Source: a virus (lineage: Duplodnaviria > Heunggongvirae > Uroviricota > Caudoviricetes). Taken from it: a DNA stretch of 64,000 nt. Shown here one piece after another: positions 2,860 to 34,942 of this stretch; position 1 is the stretch's first letter; each line of letters opens with the position of its first letter. The position numbers and the translations under genes were made by a program. The notes under the pieces were generated by a model. The model saw only the letters and a list, made by a program, of their open reading frames with translations. It made no database searches and was not told the origin of the DNA. The stretch lies in the IMG/VR virus record IMGVR_UViG_2541047860_000002; one strand, given 5' to 3'.

Positions 2860-4290
2860 TTACGGGTAAGAAATACTGAACGTTGAAGATTTCACGTCAA
2901 GATAAATGAAGTCATTAAAGTAAACTGCATCTTTCATATTTTGTATTGTTATGTCATAAGAGAGAAACATATCCAGCGACTCTATTACTCGCCAAATATC
3001 TTTAACTTTTACCTGTGCATAACATTGCTGAGAATCATCATCACTCTGTAGTAATAAACTGAATGATGACGAATCACGACCAAAATTATCTTCCAACGCT
3101 GCTTTAATAGCATTTTGAGCGTCGTCTATCAGAACATTTTTACGTGCAATACCTGTAAATTTTATAGTAAATGGTTGTTCATTTGTATCTACATACTCAA
3201 ACCGCTTGTTCAACTCATTTGGAACATTCTCTAGAGCTTTCAGTATTTCTGATTTTAGCTGAGCCTGGCTTACACCTGGCTTATGTCCGCAAAAGAAAAT
3301 CTTGTTGATGTTTCGAACGTCAAACCCAGTTATTTTCTCTTGTAACGCTTCGCCCCAAACGTTCAACCATGAAGTTCCATGAACAACATTCTGAATGAAT
3401 TGGCGATAATCACCGCCCCATACCACTTGTTCATCGTATGCAACATAATACTGAGCACGATTTCGAGTTTCTTCTGTAGTTTCCATACCACTACCACCGG
3501 TAATGATCGAATCAGTTTTAAACTCTAGTGACTCCACATATTGAGCGATATTTCCAGCCGGTTCTAACTTTTGTCCTTCAGCCAAAGTATAGTCGCCAAG
3601 GCTAGCCATAACATCGATTCGAACCTGACAGCCTGCTGGAGGCATCATACCCATAGAACCATCACCAAACTTGACTCCTAGTTGTTCTGTAGGTTTATAT
3701 GCCAATGAATAGTGCTTACTCTTGTCTCTGGACATTCTAAATAATGGGTTATATGTCCATTTTTCTTCTACGCCATCTGTAATAACATAAACATCCAGGC
3801 TGGAGACTTCTTTTGTTAACTCTCTGGAAAGCAACAATGTCAGAAATAAAGTTTCCTTCTCAATATCAAATGTAACGCTAACAGCTTCATGCTGTTTAGT
3901 TTCTACGCCAGAAACAGTTCCTCCAGCAGGAATTACAACACTATTAATAATTGCCAAAGGTGTTTGGTCATTGGCAAGCAATTCAGCCCCGGCTGGTAAC
4001 GTAATATCCCGATCAGTTTTATTAGTTATAGACGTTGTTCCGTATGAAGCACTAACAAATCGCCCTACGTAACTACGGTCTTCAGCAACCGCTAAAATAC
4101 TTGAGCGGCGCGTAGCCGTTGAAATAAGTCCCTCAGTGAGGCCGCGGCTTGCAAATGTACGAGCAATATAAATAAGCTGTGATCCGAATATAGCGTGCAT
4201 CTGCACAAACTGACTATTTACAAATCGTGACCACCATGTGTTTTCATTTAACTTAGCGTTAAATTTATCCAGTAATTCTGTAATCGTCAC
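2860..4290 (-). CDS. Baseplate protein, gpJ-like
   Basis: 476-aa ORF; size, position next to gp25-like gene and overall resemblance to baseplate J family. Confidence 0.5.
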   Translation of the reverse strand: MTITELLDKFNAKLNENTWWSRFVNSQFVQMHAIFGSQLIYIARTFASRGLTEGLISTATRRSSILAVAEDRSYVGRFVSASYGTTSITNKTDRDITLPAGAELLANDQTPLAIINSVVIPAGGTVSGVETKQHEAVSVTFDIEKETLFLTLLLSRELTKEVSSLDVYVITDGVEEKWTYNPLFRMSRDKSKHYSLAYKPTEQLGVKFGDGSMGMMPPAGCQVRIDVMASLGDYTLAEGQKLEPAGNIAQYVESLEFKTDSIITGGSGMETTEETRNRAQYYVAYDEQVVWGGDYRQFIQNVVHGTSWLNVWGEALQEKITGFDVRNINKIFFCGHKPGVSQAQLKSEILKALENVPNELNKRFEYVDTNEQPFTIKFTGIARKNVLIDDAQNAIKAALEDNFGRDSSSFSLLLQSDDDSQQCYAQVKVKDIWRVIESLDMFLSYDITIQNMKDAVYFNDFIYLDVKSSTFSISYP

Positions 4291-4661
4291 GCGCCCACCC
4301 CACTTGATTTCTGCATAACAATATCCATGCTCCCACCTTTCGCATAAAAACTAATTAATAAAGAATCTTCAGAAATTGATGTGCAACGAATCCCCTCCAC
4401 ATCCAAACCTGGCAAGTCTTGTCGTAGTTTTTTCATCATTCTCCCTTCAATAGCCACTTCAACTATGTGCGAAGTTTCAGAGCCGAATGGTTCATGCTTA
4501 AATTCTTCCATTGGATTCCCCCAAGAGGGTAAACCATAAACACTCCCTTCAGGGGTTCGTAGCCACTCGTCAAGTCGGGCCATCCATGCTGCGGTACTTC
4601 CTTCTGCAATAATGACACCGCTCTCATTCGTTTGAAGTCTTGCGTCTATTTCATAAAGCAT
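4287..4661 (-). CDS. Baseplate wedge protein, gpW/gp25-like
   Basis: 124-aa ORF overlapping downstream gene start by 4 nt; size and context. Confidence 0.45.
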   Translation of the reverse strand: MLYEIDARLQTNESGVIIAEGSTAAWMARLDEWLRTPEGSVYGLPSWGNPMEEFKHEPFGSETSHIVEVAIEGRMMKKLRQDLPGLDVEGIRCTSISEDSLLISFYAKGGSMDIVMQKSSGVGA

Positions 4662-25469: not shown

Positions 25470-26373
25470 ACTTCATTATTGCAATTATATCGTTAGCAAC
25501 TACACGTGTTGACGCCTTGCAGGAAACCGACCGTCTGGCTGCCATATGATGTACTTTAAACCCGTTTCCTTCATATAGTTCACGGATGTTTGGAGCACCA
25601 CTATTTGTAATCACTACCTTAGCGCCGCGCTGGTGGGCTTCCACCAATAGAGATACCAGCCGTTTCTGTTCGTCGAAACGGAAGCTATTTCCTGAATAAC
25701 TGGTAAACCATTCTGTATCCGGCAGCGGTTCATACGGCGGATCGCAAAAAATCACATCGCCTTCACCAGCCGCCTCGATGACGCCAGCAAAGTCACCTGA
25801 TACAAAGGAAGTGTTTTTGAGTACGTCATCAGCCAAAAATGCCTCCATCTCTGCATGTGGGAAGTAGGGCGCTTTGTATTTACCATACCCTACGTTGAAC
25901 TCGCCATTTTGGTTGTACCGTGTTACGCCATTAAAACAGTGCCGATTAAGGTACAAAAAGGCAGCAGCATGATGTAGTTGGTCATACTTTCCTCTGTTAA
26001 ATGCCTCACGCACTTCGAGGTAAGCGTCAGCGTTGTTGTAATTTTGGAAAAAACTATATGACAGCGTGACTAGAGAATGTCTTTCTCGCTGCAATGTCTG
26101 ATAGAAGTTAATCAAGTCACCGTTAATATCATTAAGCAGGTTGTGGCGAAATCCTGCATTCGTAAATACGGAACCGCCACCAACGAATGGTTCTATTAAC
26201 CGCTTACCGTGTGGTAGATGCTCAAGCACTATAGGCAACTCTGAAAATTTACCGCCTACCCATTTGAAGATCGGACGCTCGTATTCATCCGGAGTCCGAA
26301 TGGTGCGCATATAGCTAATTTCCGCCATCGAATCATGTCTTTCTATGGCTGTGCTTACTAGAGATTTACTCAT
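25468..26373 (-). CDS. dam: DNA adenine methyltransferase (Dam family)
   Basis: FKWVGGK and DPPY motifs; start set to ATG 26373, which overlaps the upstream stop (ATGAGTAA). Confidence 0.8.
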   Translation of the reverse strand: MSKSLVSTAIERHDSMAEISYMRTIRTPDEYERPIFKWVGGKFSELPIVLEHLPHGKRLIEPFVGGGSVFTNAGFRHNLLNDINGDLINFYQTLQRERHSLVTLSYSFFQNYNNADAYLEVREAFNRGKYDQLHHAAAFLYLNRHCFNGVTRYNQNGEFNVGYGKYKAPYFPHAEMEAFLADDVLKNTSFVSGDFAGVIEAAGEGDVIFCDPPYEPLPDTEWFTSYSGNSFRFDEQKRLVSLLVEAHQRGAKVVITNSGAPNIRELYEGNGFKVHHMAARRSVSCKASTRVVANDIIAIMK

Positions 26374-27016
26374 AGAGCACCCCCTTATTTGCTTCGAAAA
26401 CTGCTTTTGCGAATCCATTCGGAGTAGCACTTCGAAAATTAGCCCTTTCAGGCCCAGGTGGCGCGGTATGGATTCTGTTATCTGGCTTGCCTAATGATTC
26501 GTCCATTAGGGCATCAGGCATGACAAAGCCCTGCCCGCTCCAGAGGCATGTTTTTTTGGTGTAATTGTCTTCCTTGCAATATGCAGTGAAGTGGTAAGGA
26601 TGGAAGATGTGATCAGGTTTACGCCAGAATGTCGATATTTGGCTGACCGGGTTTTCAATCATGTACGGGCAACCAATCATCTTTGCAATGTCGTAACACT
26701 GCCAGACGACTTGCATCGCTTTGAACTGGAAAACCGGATCTTTGTCAGCCTTATGTGCAAACCAGCGCGCACCGGAAACAGCAAGGTCCGTGCACGGCGG
26801 AAAACCAGCTAAAAACACAATACGTTGTAAATTATTTCGGAGAAAAGCATAAACTTCATCACTATCGATAATCGCACTGATACGTGTCAGAACTGCGCCT
26901 GATTGCATCAGCTCATCTGTGGTCTTTGCGTGTTGTGGATCGACGATAACAGCATCTATACCATGCTCCAGCCAGGGGGCGACCATTTTCCCCGTGAAAT
27001 CACAAAGACTCACCAT
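26366..27016 (-). CDS. C5-cytosine DNA methyltransferase-like protein
   Basis: GFPPCTDLAVSG (PC motif) and MIENPV (ENV motif); degenerate motif I; start trimmed to ATG 27016 just after rdgC stop. Confidence 0.5.
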   Translation of the reverse strand: MVSLCDFTGKMVAPWLEHGIDAVIVDPQHAKTTDELMQSGAVLTRISAIIDSDEVYAFLRNNLQRIVFLAGFPPCTDLAVSGARWFAHKADKDPVFQFKAMQVVWQCYDIAKMIGCPYMIENPVSQISTFWRKPDHIFHPYHFTAYCKEDNYTKKTCLWSGQGFVMPDALMDESLGKPDNRIHTAPPGPERANFRSATPNGFAKAVFEANKGVLYE

Positions 27017-29628: not shown

Positions 29629-30396
29629 TCACCCCATAGATATCGAGGTTTCGGTAATAATACGTTTTGCGTCCAACTCCCATGCTGTGATCACGTCTGC
29701 AATCACACTTATCGGCGCTTGTGTGGCATAAATACGCTCTTCTCCAATTGGTGCTGAAACATCCGTAAAGCCGACTTCTTTGGCATCCTGTATCGAGCAA
29801 ATCAGCGGGACCGGGACACGAACAAGGTGAGTGGTTGCTTCAAATTGTGTACCTGTCATCAGGCGAAGCCGTGCGCCCAGCGAATTACACATCAGACTCA
29901 TGGTCGCTTTATCAGTTGCCATTAACGTAACGTCATACGTCAGAATGGCCTGGGTGTATTCCAGTTCTGCTAAAGGCGTTCCGGTATCTGGTTCGCAAAA
30001 ACTGGCTACTTTTTTGCGGTCAATCTGCTGATCATCGTTGATATAATTGATATCCATAGTGCGTGAGATATTGACCAGGGGGAGAGCATCCCGGTTAATG
30101 TTCTGGTTTTCAGGTTTTCTCCCTTGCCCGGCATTTGCGCGACGAACTGCTTTAAGAAACTCGATCGCATTGTCGAAACGGGCCATATAGACACGCTCTG
30201 CTGGTGGACGATTCAGGAATGACGCAAAGCGTTTTTCTTCCGGCGCGGGGGCCACCAGTAAGATATCAGAAAAAATGTTGCTGATTAGCGTCGCAAACGC
30301 GTTATCCACGTTTTCAAAGCCCGTGGTCTGGAATTTTCCTGTGCGTAAGGTTTGCCATTCACCGGTTCGCGCCAGGAGGGTTTTATTTGAAGTCAT
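29629..30396 (-). CDS. Hypothetical structural protein
   Basis: 255-aa ORF. Confidence 0.35.
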   Translation of the reverse strand: MTSNKTLLARTGEWQTLRTGKFQTTGFENVDNAFATLISNIFSDILLVAPAPEEKRFASFLNRPPAERVYMARFDNAIEFLKAVRRANAGQGRKPENQNINRDALPLVNISRTMDINYINDDQQIDRKKVASFCEPDTGTPLAELEYTQAILTYDVTLMATDKATMSLMCNSLGARLRLMTGTQFEATTHLVRVPVPLICSIQDAKEVGFTDVSAPIGEERIYATQAPISVIADVITAWELDAKRIITETSISMG

Positions 30397-31196
30397 TCGA
30401 TCACTCCGTTTTGAGTCGTATCAAAATTCCTGGCAGGTATGCAGTAGTAAAGCGAACCAACATGCTGTGTGCCGTAGCTAAAAATACGGTGCACGTACCA
30501 CCAGCGGCGGGCTACGCCGTTTACCATCTCTTCATTCCATTCAAGAATTGAGCCGACGGGGACGTTATTTGCTGCAATACGCAGAATCAGAACATCATCG
30601 GTTAAGCCATCCTGCTCACCGTCTGCGTCAATCGCATGGAAAGAGTCACGCCCGTCAGGGTTATCCAGCACATAAACGATTTCAGGTTCCTGGTAAGTCA
30701 GTTCGCGTTGGTTGTTATCCAGTTCAGTGAATGACTCTTCTCCTGTTTCGTCGCTGACTACCCCATATGTGCCAACATCTGGTCGATATAAGAGAGCCTG
30801 AAACGCGTCTGGGCTGGATTCAATAATCAGCATCCAGTCTGCGCGGATTTGGTCGTTAAAGGCTTTATGCCCGTTATAGCGTGCTTTTAGCTGTGGAGTT
30901 GGTTCTCTGCCAGCCAGGGAAGGAGGAAGTATGGCTATATCTGATTCGCCAGCATCCGGAGTAAGGCCACCGTTGCTATCAGCAAAATTATCATGGCTAT
31001 CAGCTTTGGCGGCGGGTTGCTCTTCCAGAATGCTGAATGAATCCGAACCGGTATTGCCATGTTCCGGCGCGCCTCCTGCATTCGCTTCAATCGGCGCTGG
31101 CGTTTCTCTCTGCGTGCTGTCATGTTCTGACTCCTTACTTGCCAGGTTTGCATCGTCAGCAAACCATTCGTCAAAACGGCCCATAAGCATCCTCAA
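30393..31196 (-). CDS. Hypothetical acidic protein
   Basis: 267-aa ORF. Confidence 0.35.
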   Translation of the reverse strand: MRMLMGRFDEWFADDANLASKESEHDSTQRETPAPIEANAGGAPEHGNTGSDSFSILEEQPAAKADSHDNFADSNGGLTPDAGESDIAILPPSLAGREPTPQLKARYNGHKAFNDQIRADWMLIIESSPDAFQALLYRPDVGTYGVVSDETGEESFTELDNNQRELTYQEPEIVYVLDNPDGRDSFHAIDADGEQDGLTDDVLILRIAANNVPVGSILEWNEEMVNGVARRWWYVHRIFSYGTQHVGSLYYCIPARNFDTTQNGVIE

Positions 31197-31346
31197 AGGT
31201 CGATCTGTCAGGTATCGAAAGGAAGATTTTCGGGAGATTGTGATTTTGGATGAAGGAGGGGGAATTCATAAAATGCACTTGCGCACAGTGCAACAGTGCG
31301 CTATAGTTATGGCATTCGGTAATCATCACGGAGGATCAAATGACTA

Positions 31347-31649
31347 ATGACCAAAAAAATTAACATAAAGGATTTCAGGGATGCGTGGCTTGATGATTTT
31401 TTTGAATTTTCAACACCACATAGAAAGATACCTCCTGATATTCATATGACATTGTCACGGAAGTTGGACATTATCAATGCCGCAACTACCTGTAAGGATT
31501 TAAGATCACCACCAGGTAATCGGTATGAGGAACTGTCAGGGAAGCTAAATGGCTATTCATCAGTAAGGGTGAATAAGCAATATAGGTTAATTTTTAAGTG
31601 GGTTAACGGAAAGGCCGAGGACTTGTATCTCGACCCTCACAAATACTAA
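31347..31649 (+). CDS. higB: HigB-family toxin (RelE/ParE fold)
   Basis: KDFRDAWLDDFF..IPPDI..LSRKL..DLRSPPGNRYEELSGKLNGYSSVRVNKQYRLIF signature. Confidence 0.8.
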   Translation: MTKKINIKDFRDAWLDDFFEFSTPHRKIPPDIHMTLSRKLDIINAATTCKDLRSPPGNRYEELSGKLNGYSSVRVNKQYRLIFKWVNGKAEDLYLDPHKY

Positions 31650-31719
31650 AACAGATACCCGGTTACGGACCGGGTTCTGACCAGAGTCCACTTAATACGT
31701 ACGCTAGTAAGGGCAAAAA

Positions 31720-32058
31720 ATGAAACAGGCAACCAGAAAACCGACGACCGTAGGTGATATCCTGCTGTACGAATACCTGGAGCCGTTAGAGCTGAAGATC
31801 AACGAGTTAGCAGAAATACTTCATGTTCATCGTAACACCGTAAGTGCTCTTGTTAATAATAATCGTAAGCTAACGATGGATATGGCATATCGCCTGGCAA
31901 AAGCATTCGATACTTCTGTAGATTTTTGGATTAATCTTCAGACCGCAGTAGATCTGTGGGAAGTCGAAAATGATATGCGCGTTCAGGAAGAGTTAAGTCG
32001 TATCAATACTGCTGAAAAATTTATTTCTCAGCGGAACCTGAATAAAAAAGCAGCCTGA
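31720..32058 (+). CDS. higA: HigA-family HTH antitoxin (YbaQ-like)
   Basis: XRE-type HTH; closely resembles E. coli YbaQ as I recall it. Confidence 0.75.
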   Translation: MKQATRKPTTVGDILLYEYLEPLELKINELAEILHVHRNTVSALVNNNRKLTMDMAYRLAKAFDTSVDFWINLQTAVDLWEVENDMRVQEELSRINTAEKFISQRNLNKKAA

Positions 32059-32080
32059 TATAGTAAAACACATACAAAAA

Positions 32081-32108
32081 GCCCACTTAGCAAGTGGGCT
32101 TTCCTTTG
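32081..32108 (+). terminator. Rho-independent terminator after higA
   Basis: GCCCACTTAGCAAGTGGGC hairpin followed by TTTCCTTTG. Confidence 0.55.
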
Positions 32109-32114
32109 TAATTA

Positions 32115-32315
32115 ATGAACATTAAACCTATCCGTACAGAACAAGATTATGAGGCCGCACTGCGTGCGGTCAAACCGATGTTCGATAACGAACCGGAAAT
32201 GAATACTCCGGAAGGTGATTTCTTTGAGGTTATGAGTCTTCTCATTGAGGAGTACGAGAAGAAACATTACCCAATTCAGCCACCATCACCTGTTGAATCT
32301 TTTAACTATCCATAA
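32115..32315 (+). CDS. Small protein resembling only the N-terminal domain of HigA-type antitoxins (no HTH)
   Basis: IKPIRTEQDYEAALRAV...TPEGDFFEVMSLLIEEYEKKHYPI; ORF stops where the HTH domain would begin. Confidence 0.4.
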   Translation: MNIKPIRTEQDYEAALRAVKPMFDNEPEMNTPEGDFFEVMSLLIEEYEKKHYPIQPPSPVESFNYP

Positions 32316-32336
32316 TAAAAGTAATCAGGATAAGCT

Positions 32337-33065
32337 ATGATGTCAGAAAAAGTTAAAGATAATCCGTCTATAAATGAAACAGAACTAAAATCATTTTCTG
32401 AAATAATAAAAGATAAAATATTTAACAAGGTTTTTGCATATGTTGTCATTTCTTTTCTAATTTTTAACTGGAAGGATATTTTAATTATATTAAAGTCAAA
32501 GGACGACATCCTATATACATTATCTATTGTTTTTGTTGGTGGTAATGTCCCGTTCTTTGATAATTGGATTGTATCCCCGTGGGTTTATCACTTTGTAATC
32601 CCATTTGGTTATGGGGTATTTGCATCTGTGTTAGCTCCTATTCTCACACTGAAGATATCTAAGCTAACAAGTAAATTATACACTGAAATAAGATATTTAG
32701 ATGAAGATGCTGATTATGATAAAAGAATAGAATTGCAAAGAAAGAAAACAAAGTTAAATCAAGCAACCAATGACGCTAAATATTCAAAACAAATCTTAGA
32801 TGAAAATGAAAATAAACTTAATGACCTAGCTACGAAACGGCGAGAAATTTGTGGCGCGATAAAACTATTGCATTCTGATGTTGGCAGTATTATTGAACTA
32901 TATAAAAATAAGGGGGTTAGCATTGAATCTCCGCAAGATTTATGTGATTTTATAGTCGCTATAAAAAGCACATCATTCTATAATGATGACAAGCATTTTA
33001 ATAAATTGGTGTCTGATATTTCCAGTTTGTTTGATAATACTGGAATTGATCTTTCAAAAAAATGA
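32337..33065 (+). CDS. AT-rich gene for a multi-pass membrane protein with C-terminal coiled-coil domain
   Basis: ~27-30% GC versus ~48% surroundings; three predicted TM helices then ~130-aa K/D/N-rich soluble tail; no family recognised. Confidence 0.5.
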   Translation: MMSEKVKDNPSINETELKSFSEIIKDKIFNKVFAYVVISFLIFNWKDILIILKSKDDILYTLSIVFVGGNVPFFDNWIVSPWVYHFVIPFGYGVFASVLAPILTLKISKLTSKLYTEIRYLDEDADYDKRIELQRKKTKLNQATNDAKYSKQILDENENKLNDLATKRREICGAIKLLHSDVGSIIELYKNKGVSIESPQDLCDFIVAIKSTSFYNDDKHFNKLVSDISSLFDNTGIDLSKK

Positions 33066-33071
33066 AAGCCC

Positions 33072-33110
33072 AGCATAAACTACTAGGCTATGTGTGGTTT
33101 ATGCTTTTTT
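33072..33110. terminator. Hairpin plus T-run terminator
   Basis: AGCATAAAC...GTTTATGCT followed by TTTTTT. Confidence 0.5.
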
Positions 33111-34292
33111 CACGTACTCTATAAACATCTTCTCAGCCTGTTCTTGTGGCGTTCCAGCCATGACAAGCGCATCAATGAACGCCTGCTTCTTCAGTGCGAA
33201 CTGATCGGCAAGGCGTTGCTGAAGTTCCTTATTTTTCTGTTTCTCACGTTGCAAGGCCGCTTCTTTTGCAGCCGCCCGTTTTTTCTGTGCGTCTGACAAC
33301 TTTCTGGCCCTGGTCAATTGGTCACGTAGCTTGTCGATCTTGCCGTTGTCCTTTGCCAGTTTTGTACTTAAAGCTGCCTGGCGCTTCTGATAGAGCCTCC
33401 ATTCGCGTTTGGCGGCTTCAACGTTCGTTTTACTGCTACGATTGCGATTAAACTCCTTCTCGTCTTCTTTTGAGAAGTGTTTGGTTGTACGGCGGCGATC
33501 GTCACCAAATGCAATTTGCGTTGCAGCCTTTTGTAGCGCACGAGCAATACTCATTTGCCAACTGGCGGACTGTAACCGCGTCATTGAGTGGATCACGTGT
33601 TTACAGGCGACGCCTTGCAGCTTCGGGTTGCGAACTTTTGGATAGGCGTATTCTTTTGGCGGTGCCAGGGCAAAGTTACCCGCAGTGGCGATGTAACGAT
33701 ACCAGTATTGATGACGACCACAGTCACAATCGAAAGACACTCGCCCGGCGCACAGTGATTTAGTGATTTTGAGAGCTGATTTATCGTCTTCTGCGATGTC
33801 ATCAACCATCTGATCCCATTCTTCAAAGCGTATCCGGACGATATGGTGCTGGTGGACGGATATATCCGATGCTTCTACGCGGATATTAATCACATTGTGG
33901 CGAAGAGATACGGGTGTAGCTCTTTTGATACCAGATCCGTCATCCACGGCGTTATTTGCACGCTTAATATCGATTGCCTGGCTGGATGCCACCAGCTGGG
34001 CGTATGTGATGCCAGCCGTCTTGCTGTCATATTTTTCGCGCGTTTTACTCCGTAGCTTTTCGAAACCTTTCAGGTCGTCTCGCGTGAAGAACGTGCCGCC
34101 TTTTTTCTTCCCTAACTTGAGAATATCTTCGGCGGATTTGTTCCTCAGTCTACCTGGCGTCAGCGTCCGGTGAGCTTGTCGGCGCTTACGGGTTTGTTCT
34201 TTCCTGATAAGCTCGAATAAACGCGTGAAGTCCTTAGAGGACAGGCCGTCAGTGATATAGCGCCCGTCCTGGTTTTTCAGGAAATCAGGCAT
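33099..34292 (-). CDS. Hypothetical protein with Cys/His cluster and basic coiled-coil C-terminus
   Basis: 397-aa ORF; CDCGRHQYWYRY..CKHV motif. Confidence 0.4.
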   Translation of the reverse strand: MPDFLKNQDGRYITDGLSSKDFTRLFELIRKEQTRKRRQAHRTLTPGRLRNKSAEDILKLGKKKGGTFFTRDDLKGFEKLRSKTREKYDSKTAGITYAQLVASSQAIDIKRANNAVDDGSGIKRATPVSLRHNVINIRVEASDISVHQHHIVRIRFEEWDQMVDDIAEDDKSALKITKSLCAGRVSFDCDCGRHQYWYRYIATAGNFALAPPKEYAYPKVRNPKLQGVACKHVIHSMTRLQSASWQMSIARALQKAATQIAFGDDRRRTTKHFSKEDEKEFNRNRSSKTNVEAAKREWRLYQKRQAALSTKLAKDNGKIDKLRDQLTRARKLSDAQKKRAAAKEAALQREKQKNKELQQRLADQFALKKQAFIDALVMAGTPQEQAEKMFIEYVKKA

Positions 34293-34614: not shown

Positions 34615-34807
34615 AACAAAGCCTCTCAGTCATAACCTGGGGGAAACTGTATGCAGGGTGTGAAATGCGAGAAACAGACAGGCCACCAGTTCAGGGGGAT
34701 GTGGCTCATAAATCCCCTCACTGGTGACAAGTGACTTTCATTAATCTTTATGCGGGGGCCAGCTTCATTTGCTGGCATTAGATTAAAAATTAAACGGAGT
34801 GAATGAC

Positions 34808-34942
34808 ATGGATGTTATCTTCGAATTATTAATTCTAATTGATCTGTTTATGAACGCTTCATTGACCACTCAAATACTCGCGTCAATATTTTTGTTACTC
34901 TTCTACCTGGTGTTGAGGGAGTTAACAAAGCTACTAATGTGA
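34808..34942 (+). CDS. Small hydrophobic peptide (44 aa), possible type I toxin-like or membrane peptide
   Basis: GGAG 8 nt upstream of ATG; MDVIFELLILIDLFMNASLTTQILASIFLLLFYLVLRELTKLLM; below 60-aa ORF cut-off. Confidence 0.3.
   Translation: MDVIFELLILIDLFMNASLTTQILASIFLLLFYLVLRELTKLLM

Follow-up and report, generated by a model that had tools for sequence, protein, structure and literature searches.

The 64,000-nucleotide stretch of DNA analysed here (IMG/VR virus record IMGVR_UViG_2541047860_000002; hereinafter, the window) is a D6-like phage-plasmid of the P1 family. Its DNA is 89% identical to that of Escherichia phage D6, a P1-family plasmid prophage, and matches 117 plasmids from Escherichia coli, Salmonella and Shigella, 39 of these at 99% identity or higher; nearly all the matching plasmids are non-mobilisable replicons of ~90 kb. 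The subject of this work is a cargo slot at positions 31347–33065, which encompasses four open reading frames (ORFs) on the strand opposite to that of the two tail genes, 7 and 25, between which it lies. The locus is carried by 95 of the 5426 complete E. coli genomes, on a plasmid in every case. The contents of the slot appear to consist of three parts with separate histories, namely, an ordinary HigBA toxin–antitoxin (TA) module, the remnant of an antitoxin from a different HigA family, and an AT-rich gene for a predicted membrane protein that belongs to a rare family without a name. Our best guess is that the last of these acts on its own, in exclusion or abortive infection, and is expressed in lysogens.

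The slot is flanked on the left by a tail protein gene, the homologue of P1 gene 7 (D6 orf69; 30393–31196, minus strand; PHROG 1906 ‘tail protein’, E = 2e-116; annotated in D6 as ‘similar to P1 gene 7’), and on the right by another tail protein gene, the homologue of P1 gene 25 (D6 orf74; 33099–34292, minus strand; PHROG 1722, E = 3e-196). The PHROGs assignments of the flanks as tail genes agree with the D6 annotation, in which homologues of genes 7 and 25 likewise enclose four cargo genes, orf70–orf73, on the opposite strand. All four ORFs of the window slot are found at the coordinates reported for them in an initial annotation, which had been made from the sequence alone.

The first two genes comprise a canonical, ordinary HigBA module, as had been proposed, with both proteins scoring far above the family cut-offs. 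The product of higB (31347–31649, plus strand) is a 100-aa toxin, a ‘HigB-like’ mRNA interferase of the RelE family and the Rts1 type, which matches PF05015 over the entire length of the profile (positions 1–91 of 91; 120.5 bits against a cut-off of 27; E = 4.4e-35) as well as PHROG 3066 (‘toxin of TA system’). The cognate helix-turn-helix (HTH) antitoxin of 112 aa is encoded by higA (31720–32058), which begins 70 nt downstream on the same strand; it scores 102.5 bits with TIGR02607, against a cut-off of 47.7, and also matches HTH_3 (E = 7e-11). The two proteins are 100% identical to D6 orf70 and orf71, respectively. Upstream of higB, nested inverted repeats are dense at 31274–31307 (TGCACT/AGTGCA and GCGCACAGT/ACAGTGCGC) and probably represent the HigA operator. 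These repeats overlap a putative promoter at 31278–31307 on the plus strand (TTGCGC, 17 nt, TATAGT), the hexamers of which were read from the sequence, not called by a tool, and match at 8 of 12 positions where the scanner threshold is 9. The module is probably self-regulated and presumably provides for plasmid-prophage addiction. It resembles the Rts1-type HigB/HigA (PF05015 plus TIGR02607) in the full-length matches to both models, the toxin-first gene order and the palindrome-bearing, promoter-like upstream region, and no notable difference was found.

Just past higA, at 32076–32104, there is a terminator-like hairpin with a perfect GC-rich stem of 11–13 bp (−17.9 kcal/mol), which the scan detected in either orientation; of the two T-runs, that on the minus strand is the better. 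A second terminator-like hairpin, also with a stem of 11–13 bp, separates the convergent membrane gene and tail gene 25 (33067–33089); it was detected by the scan on the minus strand only, and our reading of the sequence is that it may be active on both strands. The initial annotation had pointed to both hairpins, and both are confirmed; it had also postulated a second transcription unit behind higA, for which no start could be located, the scan having found no sigma-70-like promoter between the higA hairpin and the start codon of the 242-aa membrane protein. According to the D6 annotation, the tail genes 25 and 7, between which both hairpins lie, are neighbours in P1; hairpins that acted as terminators on the minus strand would be expected to cut late tail transcription short, except if gene 7 had a late promoter of its own.

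The third ORF (32115–32315, plus strand) encodes a 66-aa protein that had been described as the toxin-binding N-terminal half of a HigA-type antitoxin, devoid of the HTH, and this description holds. The protein is homologous to the N-terminal 60–65 residues of HigA-type antitoxins and is 89% identical to residues 1–65 of D6 orf72, with no Pfam match to an HTH. The intact parent, orf72 (119 aa), combines the N-domain with an HTH (HTH_3 at residues 63–115) and aligns with HigA of E. coli K-12 (5IFG/5YCL) over residues 24–132 (E = 8e-8). Among the PADLOC profiles, PD-Lambda-2_B matches the 66-aa ORF at positions 1–65 only (E = 3e-16). The ORF is what is left of a K-12-type HigA antitoxin gene after decay, with ~60 N-terminal codons of orf72 followed by a foreign tail of 6 codons. 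At the DNA level, the window and D6 are essentially identical from the end of higA to ~32292–32300, where the homology collapses, and the ORF terminates at a stop codon six codons beyond this break, which marks the approximate position of a recombination joint. At this joint, near codon 60, the window-type membrane cassette replaced the 3′ half of orf72, its terminator hairpin (GGCGGTC..GACCGC, present in D6 and the related loci L002, L004 and L005 and absent from the window) and the D6-type allele of the membrane gene. In RefSeq, the ORF carries a pseudogene flag (‘helix-turn-helix domain-containing protein; incomplete; missing C-terminus’). The initial annotation, which joined this ORF and the membrane gene into one system, had allowed that decay of the ORF would count against that idea, and it is indeed a decayed pseudogene.

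The origin of the remnant can be gleaned from related plasmids. In pTB423 and pF374-2, the orf72 homologue is located 4 nt downstream of the gene for a K-12-type HigB (PF09907), and the two form a canonical TA pair. In D6 and several other elements, the complete Rts1-type higBA with its terminator has taken the place of the PF09907 toxin, so that orf72 is orphaned. The arrival of a different allele of the downstream gene in the window lineage was accompanied by the loss of both the 3′ half and the terminator hairpin of orf72. No significant match to the PF09907 HigB was found in the 64-kb window (tblastn, best E = 0.088), and the genes upstream of the remnant are those of the PF05015 module, the higA of which belongs to a different HigA family; a weak HigB match at 26236–26388 was discarded as it lies inside a methylase gene. 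Compared with HigB/HigA of E. coli K-12 (YgjN/YgjM; PF09907), the window ORF shares the N-terminal ~60 residues of the 119-aa HigA homologue but lacks the HTH/dimerisation half as well as a PF09907 toxin.

Selection on the orphan copies of the antitoxin is relaxed about 10-fold: the pN/pS ratio, summed over pairs of distinct sequences, is 0.11 for these copies compared with 0.01 for those partnered with HigB. Several orphans are damaged, by an in-frame stop in one locus (L031), a frameshift in another (L036) and the truncation in the window, and over the 60 codons shared by the window and D6, there are three nonsynonymous and no synonymous changes. In plasmid pMTY12355_3 (NZ_CP134379.1; positions 1232–2460 of locus L055), which is otherwise identical to the window, the gene for an IS3-family transposase sits between higA and an intact membrane gene; as this element lies across the expected position of the 66-aa ORF, it can be read as a natural knock-out of the latter. 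The 66-aa form is confined to the lineage that carries the window-type membrane allele; this lineage is the commonest one, and each of the 10 complete window-type loci in IMG/VR has the ORF intact. When the databases were searched with the 66-aa sequence, many short relatives were retrieved, with breakpoints scattered between residues ~33 and 72 and with unrelated or frameshifted tails, and on these grounds, we rejected the notion of a conserved family of antitoxins that consist of the N-domain only.

The slot exists in several variants, which contain (i) the PF09907 HigB and the 119-aa HigA, with nothing else, (ii) the same pair followed by the membrane gene, (iii) the Rts1-type higBA, the intact 119-aa HigA and the membrane gene, as in D6, or (iv) the Rts1-type higBA, the truncated form of the 119-aa HigA and the membrane gene, as in the window. 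The locus reveals the 7/25 slot as a hotspot of recombination, in which one addiction module displaces another and orphan antitoxins are left to decay. A fragment of a P1-like element in the chromosome of Leclercia sp. 29361 (NZ_CP049786.1; 2735–5222 of locus L016) contains broken remnants of genes 7 and 25 around a PF09907 HigB and a homologue of the membrane gene; the cargo slot has thus outlived the phage. There is also a second cargo slot, at 34615–34942 of the window, between the homologues of P1 gene 26 and mat. In the window and D6, it holds only tiny ORFs, including a very hydrophobic one of 47 aa (34799–34942, in the position of D6 orf77), and in sister plasmids, another pair of a RelE/ParE toxin and a HigA antitoxin (5779–6350 of L002 and 5903–6474 of L005).

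The fourth gene of the slot (32337–33065, plus strand) begins 21 bp past the 66-aa ORF, so that the two are adjacent as reported, with the gap shorter by one base pair than the 22 bp that had been given. It encodes a predicted inner-membrane/coiled-coil protein of 242 aa, the window representative of the D6 orf73 family (PHROG 8191, of unknown function), as judged from the ORF, hydropathy, a structure model and homologues. The GC content of the gene is 29.4% (29–32% across the gene), compared with 44–52% in the flanks, in line with the original description of an AT-rich, compositionally foreign gene. The hydropathy profile reveals two strong transmembrane (TM) segments (~32–52 and ~84–106) and a short, weakly hydrophobic helix (58–70), so that the predicted combination of membrane segments with a coiled coil stands, with two TM helices instead of the three originally counted. 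The predicted layout starts with an amphipathic helix (11–28), followed by TM1 (~31–53), a short helix and hairpin (58–79), and TM2 (~84–106), which continues into a single long cytoplasmic helix up to ~191; this helix is followed by a C-terminal helical domain of two short helices (199–234). The structure prediction gave a confident helical model (pLDDT of 82.7), and the predicted location in the inner membrane rests on the two hydrophobic segments together with this model.

The family to which this protein belongs is rare and has no name. No significant match was found in Pfam, NCBIfam, PADLOC or the sequences from the PDB, nor was there a fold match, which accords with the initial impression that the protein falls into no named family; the profile searches covered the 242-aa protein and 29 family members. 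A comparison with a defence-system catalogue yielded no match either: in PADLOC-DB v2.0.0, the window protein hit only LeoC, at E = 0.03, and across the 29 relatives, only LmuB and JetC, both of the coiled-coil type, were hit. The sub-threshold matches (such as eIF3_N, ZapB, LmuB, JetC and SMC6) are all of this type and were rejected as compositional. A word-indexed homologue search retrieved only two alleles and a few distant proteins; the family became visible through an exhaustive HMMER search, which yielded 40 clusters (at 50% identity; E ≤ 0.001) among 1.84 billion representatives. Related loci were gathered with an alignment of nine sequences, as the broad alignment has no conserved block. 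The full-length members, of 205–321 aa, share one common plan, with an amphipathic N-terminal helix, TM1, a short loop, TM2, a long heptad-rich helix and a small helical C-terminal domain. TM1 contains an invariant Asn and then a Trp that is near-invariant (residue 45 of the window protein), followed by a conserved ILIL-KSK-DI stretch, and TM2 shows a conserved Pro...Gly...Pro pattern.

Within the D6-like elements, the alleles of the membrane gene are only 32–57% identical, compared with 96–100% for gp7 and gp25 and 92–100% for the intact orf72, and all of these alleles have a GC content of 29–35%. The dS values are between ~0.5 and >1 for most pairs of alleles and lower in the closest pairs, with the flanks being near-identical. 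Over the whole gene, the pairwise dN/dS is 0.24–0.37; together with the existence of homologues, these values indicate a real gene under purifying selection and not a chance ORF. The constraint is unevenly distributed, with dN/dS of 0.04–0.11 in the membrane module (residues 21–69), mostly 0.09–0.27 in residues 84–122, up to ~1 in the coiled coil, and >1, from small counts, in the first 20 residues. The homology between alleles at the DNA level runs through orf72 into the first ~170–190 nt of the membrane gene, and this shared DNA serves as a recombination anchor. Taken together, the sequence comparisons indicate that the membrane gene is functional and that its alleles are old and have been exchanged by recombination, as opposed to evolving fast in place. 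The gene is absent from pTB423, and D6 is its only match among the sequenced phage genomes.

Relatives of the membrane gene turn up in elements of several kinds. In a more distant P1-like lineage, the relative occupies the same 7/25 slot, where it follows a PF09907 HigB of diverged sequence with the HTH antitoxin belonging to it. In another P1-like lineage, it is found in a different slot (between tail-tube and pmgC homologues), behind either HigBA or TacA/GNAT-TacT. Two loci of this second lineage differ in what lies directly upstream, TacA/GNAT-TacT in one (L014, 3068–3908) and PF09907 HigB/HigA in the other (L045, 3221–3945); the TA module here has been swapped while the membrane-gene family stayed. 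In P2-like prophages, the family member stands alone and is encoded on the opposite strand, with baseplate gene V on one side and orf30/S on the other; one P2-like cluster, with a 216-aa member (4001–4651 in loci L040–L042), is present in 42 blocks of the assembly collection, and the orf30-like neighbour belongs to PHROG 10503, a family of unknown function. In lambdoid prophages, the membrane gene is alone as well and follows the lysis cassette, between an Rz-like spanin gene and HNH/terminase. In chromosomal islets, the relatives are located beside a PDC-S06 ATPase, 12 nt behind a PD-T7-4-like DUF4145 gene, or in the vicinity of either a WYL regulator or genes for DUF4942 and H-NS. The TA pairs are found without the membrane gene, and the membrane gene without the TA pairs; wherever they are linked in a cassette, a terminator-like hairpin lies between them. 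An operonic arrangement of a TA pair and an effector was given less weight for this reason, and the early suggestion that the membrane gene is mobile-element cargo in a defence-like setting is borne out by these contexts.

We favour the explanation under which the 7/25 locus is a cargo slot that combines an addiction module, a dead antitoxin remnant and a stand-alone membrane gene of the conflict type, and consider it, as a whole, moderately probable. The membrane protein probably acts in conflicts between phages. This role is suggested by the properties of a non-essential, compositionally foreign gene, by its carriage in three unrelated types of temperate phages at classic accessory-gene sites, by the ancient allelic diversity between near-identical genomes, and by the defence-gene neighbours in chromosomal locations. 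Under this scenario, the gene would be an accessory (‘moron’) gene of P1-like, P2-like and lambdoid prophages and of small genomic islands, represented by ancient, highly diverged alleles that are swapped between otherwise near-identical phage-plasmids. The protein would be made in the lysogen, inserted with both termini in the cytoplasm and oligomerised via the coiled coil; the oligomer would block genome entry or abort the development of competing phages and phage-plasmids (superinfection exclusion or abortive infection), with the specificity set by the variable coiled coil, the C-terminal domain and the N-terminal tip. The 66-aa ORF would have no part in this mechanism.

Small inner-membrane proteins that mediate exclusion, abortive infection or entry exclusion include SieB (lambda/P22), SieA (P22), HK97 gp15, T4 Imm, lambda RexB and TraS. 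The resemblance of the window protein to these is in kind only, not in sequence or fold: it is likewise a small inner-membrane protein (as predicted), the gene for it is AT-rich, non-essential and accessory to a temperate-phage or plasmid genome, such genes often lie within tail or lysis regions, and their alleles are very divergent between close relatives. The accessory status, a hallmark of this class, is evident from the absence of the gene from pTB423 and from its positions in P1-like, P2-like and lambdoid prophages.

Several observations weigh against this interpretation. The conflict role is assigned through guilt by association, on the strength of about a dozen contexts. Expression in the lysogen is an assumption, the scan of the window having found no promoter for the membrane gene. 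Two alleles, in loci L033 and L038, are disrupted, and the membrane gene accordingly is dispensable. Furthermore, the gene repeatedly comes right after a type II TA pair (in three settings HigBA, in one TacAT), a pattern that a shared hotspot explains only partly; such placement might also reflect functional coupling, with the TA pair as a sensor or gate. A more specific and bolder version of the conflict scenario, which we put forward tentatively and consider rather doubtful as it stands, is that the D6 orf73 family is a new single-gene anti-phage or exclusion system, in which a conserved two-TM anchor holds a hypervariable cytoplasmic coiled coil and C-terminal domain that recognise components of the invader. 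The ancient alleles would then be kept by frequency-dependent selection and shuffled by recombination between the conserved 5′ module and tail gene 25.

Among the alternatives, the one that fares best, although we consider it unlikely, is that the protein is an accessory of the life cycle of the element or of host physiology and not a conflict gene, with a role, for example, in lysis timing, in anchoring of the plasmid or of virion assembly at the membrane, in modulation of cell division, or in lysogenic conversion. Such a role is compatible with the gene neighbourhood in P1-like, P2-like and lambdoid genomes, which consists of tail, baseplate or lysis genes, and with the strong conservation of the membrane module (dN/dS of 0.04–0.11); bacterial scaffolding proteins also come to mind, if only by resemblance, given a two-TM anchor that leads into a long cytoplasmic coiled coil. 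However, the gene is missing in pTB423 and has D6 as its sole match among the sequenced phages, it is broken in some otherwise intact elements, and in P1-like and P2-like genomes, it is located on the strand opposite to the morphogenetic operons. The extreme divergence of the alleles between near-identical flanks also would be unexpected of a housekeeping accessory.

Distinctly unlikely, in our assessment, is a tripartite cassette, a TA-linked defence unit comparable to PD-lambda-2 or CmdTAC that would have the membrane protein as its third component, or effector, with the TA pair serving as a phage sensor or transcriptional gate and the membrane protein executing or modulating abortive infection. 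The PD-lambda-2 system consists of the HigB-like A, the HigA–peptidase fusion B and the third component C, and defence requires the third gene (Vassallo et al. 2022, PMC9519451). The membrane gene is located directly downstream of TA pairs of three types (PF09907 HigBA, PF05015 HigBA and TacA/GNAT-TacT) at two insertion sites in P1-like elements, so that there is a third gene after a TA-like pair, and the HigA-like N-terminal module of B is shared, with D6 orf72 matching the N-terminal 119 positions of PD-Lambda-2_B (E = 4e-43). However, the match covers only 1–65 (window) or 1–119 (D6) of the 402 profile positions, the peptidase domain is lacking, higB has no PADLOC match to PD-Lambda-2 A or C, and the 242-aa protein has none above noise. 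The third gene encodes an unrelated membrane protein beyond a terminator, and such a hairpin lies between the TA pair and the membrane gene in each of the cassettes. Moreover, the types of TA are swapped freely, the TA pair occurs without the membrane gene (pTB423) and the membrane gene elsewhere without a TA pair, and what adjoins the membrane gene in the window itself is a dead antitoxin whose toxin is missing.

Two further possibilities assign a function to the 66-aa ORF. The retained part of the antitoxin is the N-domain, which, in the E. coli HigBA structure 5IFG, is the part of HigA that binds the toxin. The remnant could be a free toxin-binding decoy (‘anti-addiction’) against the PF09907 HigB of incompatible sibling phage-plasmids or of the host, which would help the window lineage to displace its rivals. 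The sibling plasmids indeed encode a PF09907 HigB whose antitoxin is ~95% identical over the ~60 retained residues, the ORF is intact in 10 of 10 complete window-type IMG/VR loci from the commonest lineage, and the orphan full-length copies still evolve at a pN/pS of 0.11, not 1. Nevertheless, the ratio of 3 nonsynonymous to 0 synonymous changes between the window and D6 in 60 codons, the IS3-family element across the ORF in one plasmid, the nonsense codon or frameshift in other orphan copies, the breaks of the short forms in the databases at scattered positions instead of a conserved domain boundary, and the lack of a promoter in the scan of the window locus make this quite improbable. The initial proposal combined the 66-aa ORF with the 242-aa protein into a new two-gene TA or abortive-infection system, in which the membrane effector would be neutralised by its small partner; it is largely refuted already and very improbable. 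In its favour, the gap between the two co-directional ORFs is 21 bp, a good Shine-Dalgarno sequence is present, and in this HigA family it is the N-domain that binds the toxin. Against it, the 66-aa form, a truncated orf72 born at a deletion/recombination joint, exists in one lineage only, its full-length parent is the antitoxin of the PF09907 HigB encoded 4 nt upstream in other plasmids, the ORF is flagged as a pseudogene in RefSeq and orphan copies are decaying, the IS3-family element in L055 spares the membrane gene, the membrane protein occurs without such a partner in P2-like and lambdoid prophages and in islands, and the antitoxin is 92–100% conserved against 32–57% for the membrane alleles, so that the co-variation of binding partners is not seen.

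Phage-plasmids of the P1/D6 type are common in both E. coli and Salmonella, and some have been described in the literature as carriers of resistance genes; the locus discussed here has already been sequenced many times and annotated as ‘hypothetical’. It maintains a family of membrane proteins, so far unnamed, as a set of very old and very different alleles, for which there is a good, if circumstantial, case for a role in conflicts. If the membrane protein is, indeed, an exclusion or defence determinant, it would represent a new single-gene system and would help explain which phage-plasmids coexist with or displace each other. If it is not, the locus would still be a clean natural example of the replacement of TA modules and the decay of antitoxins.

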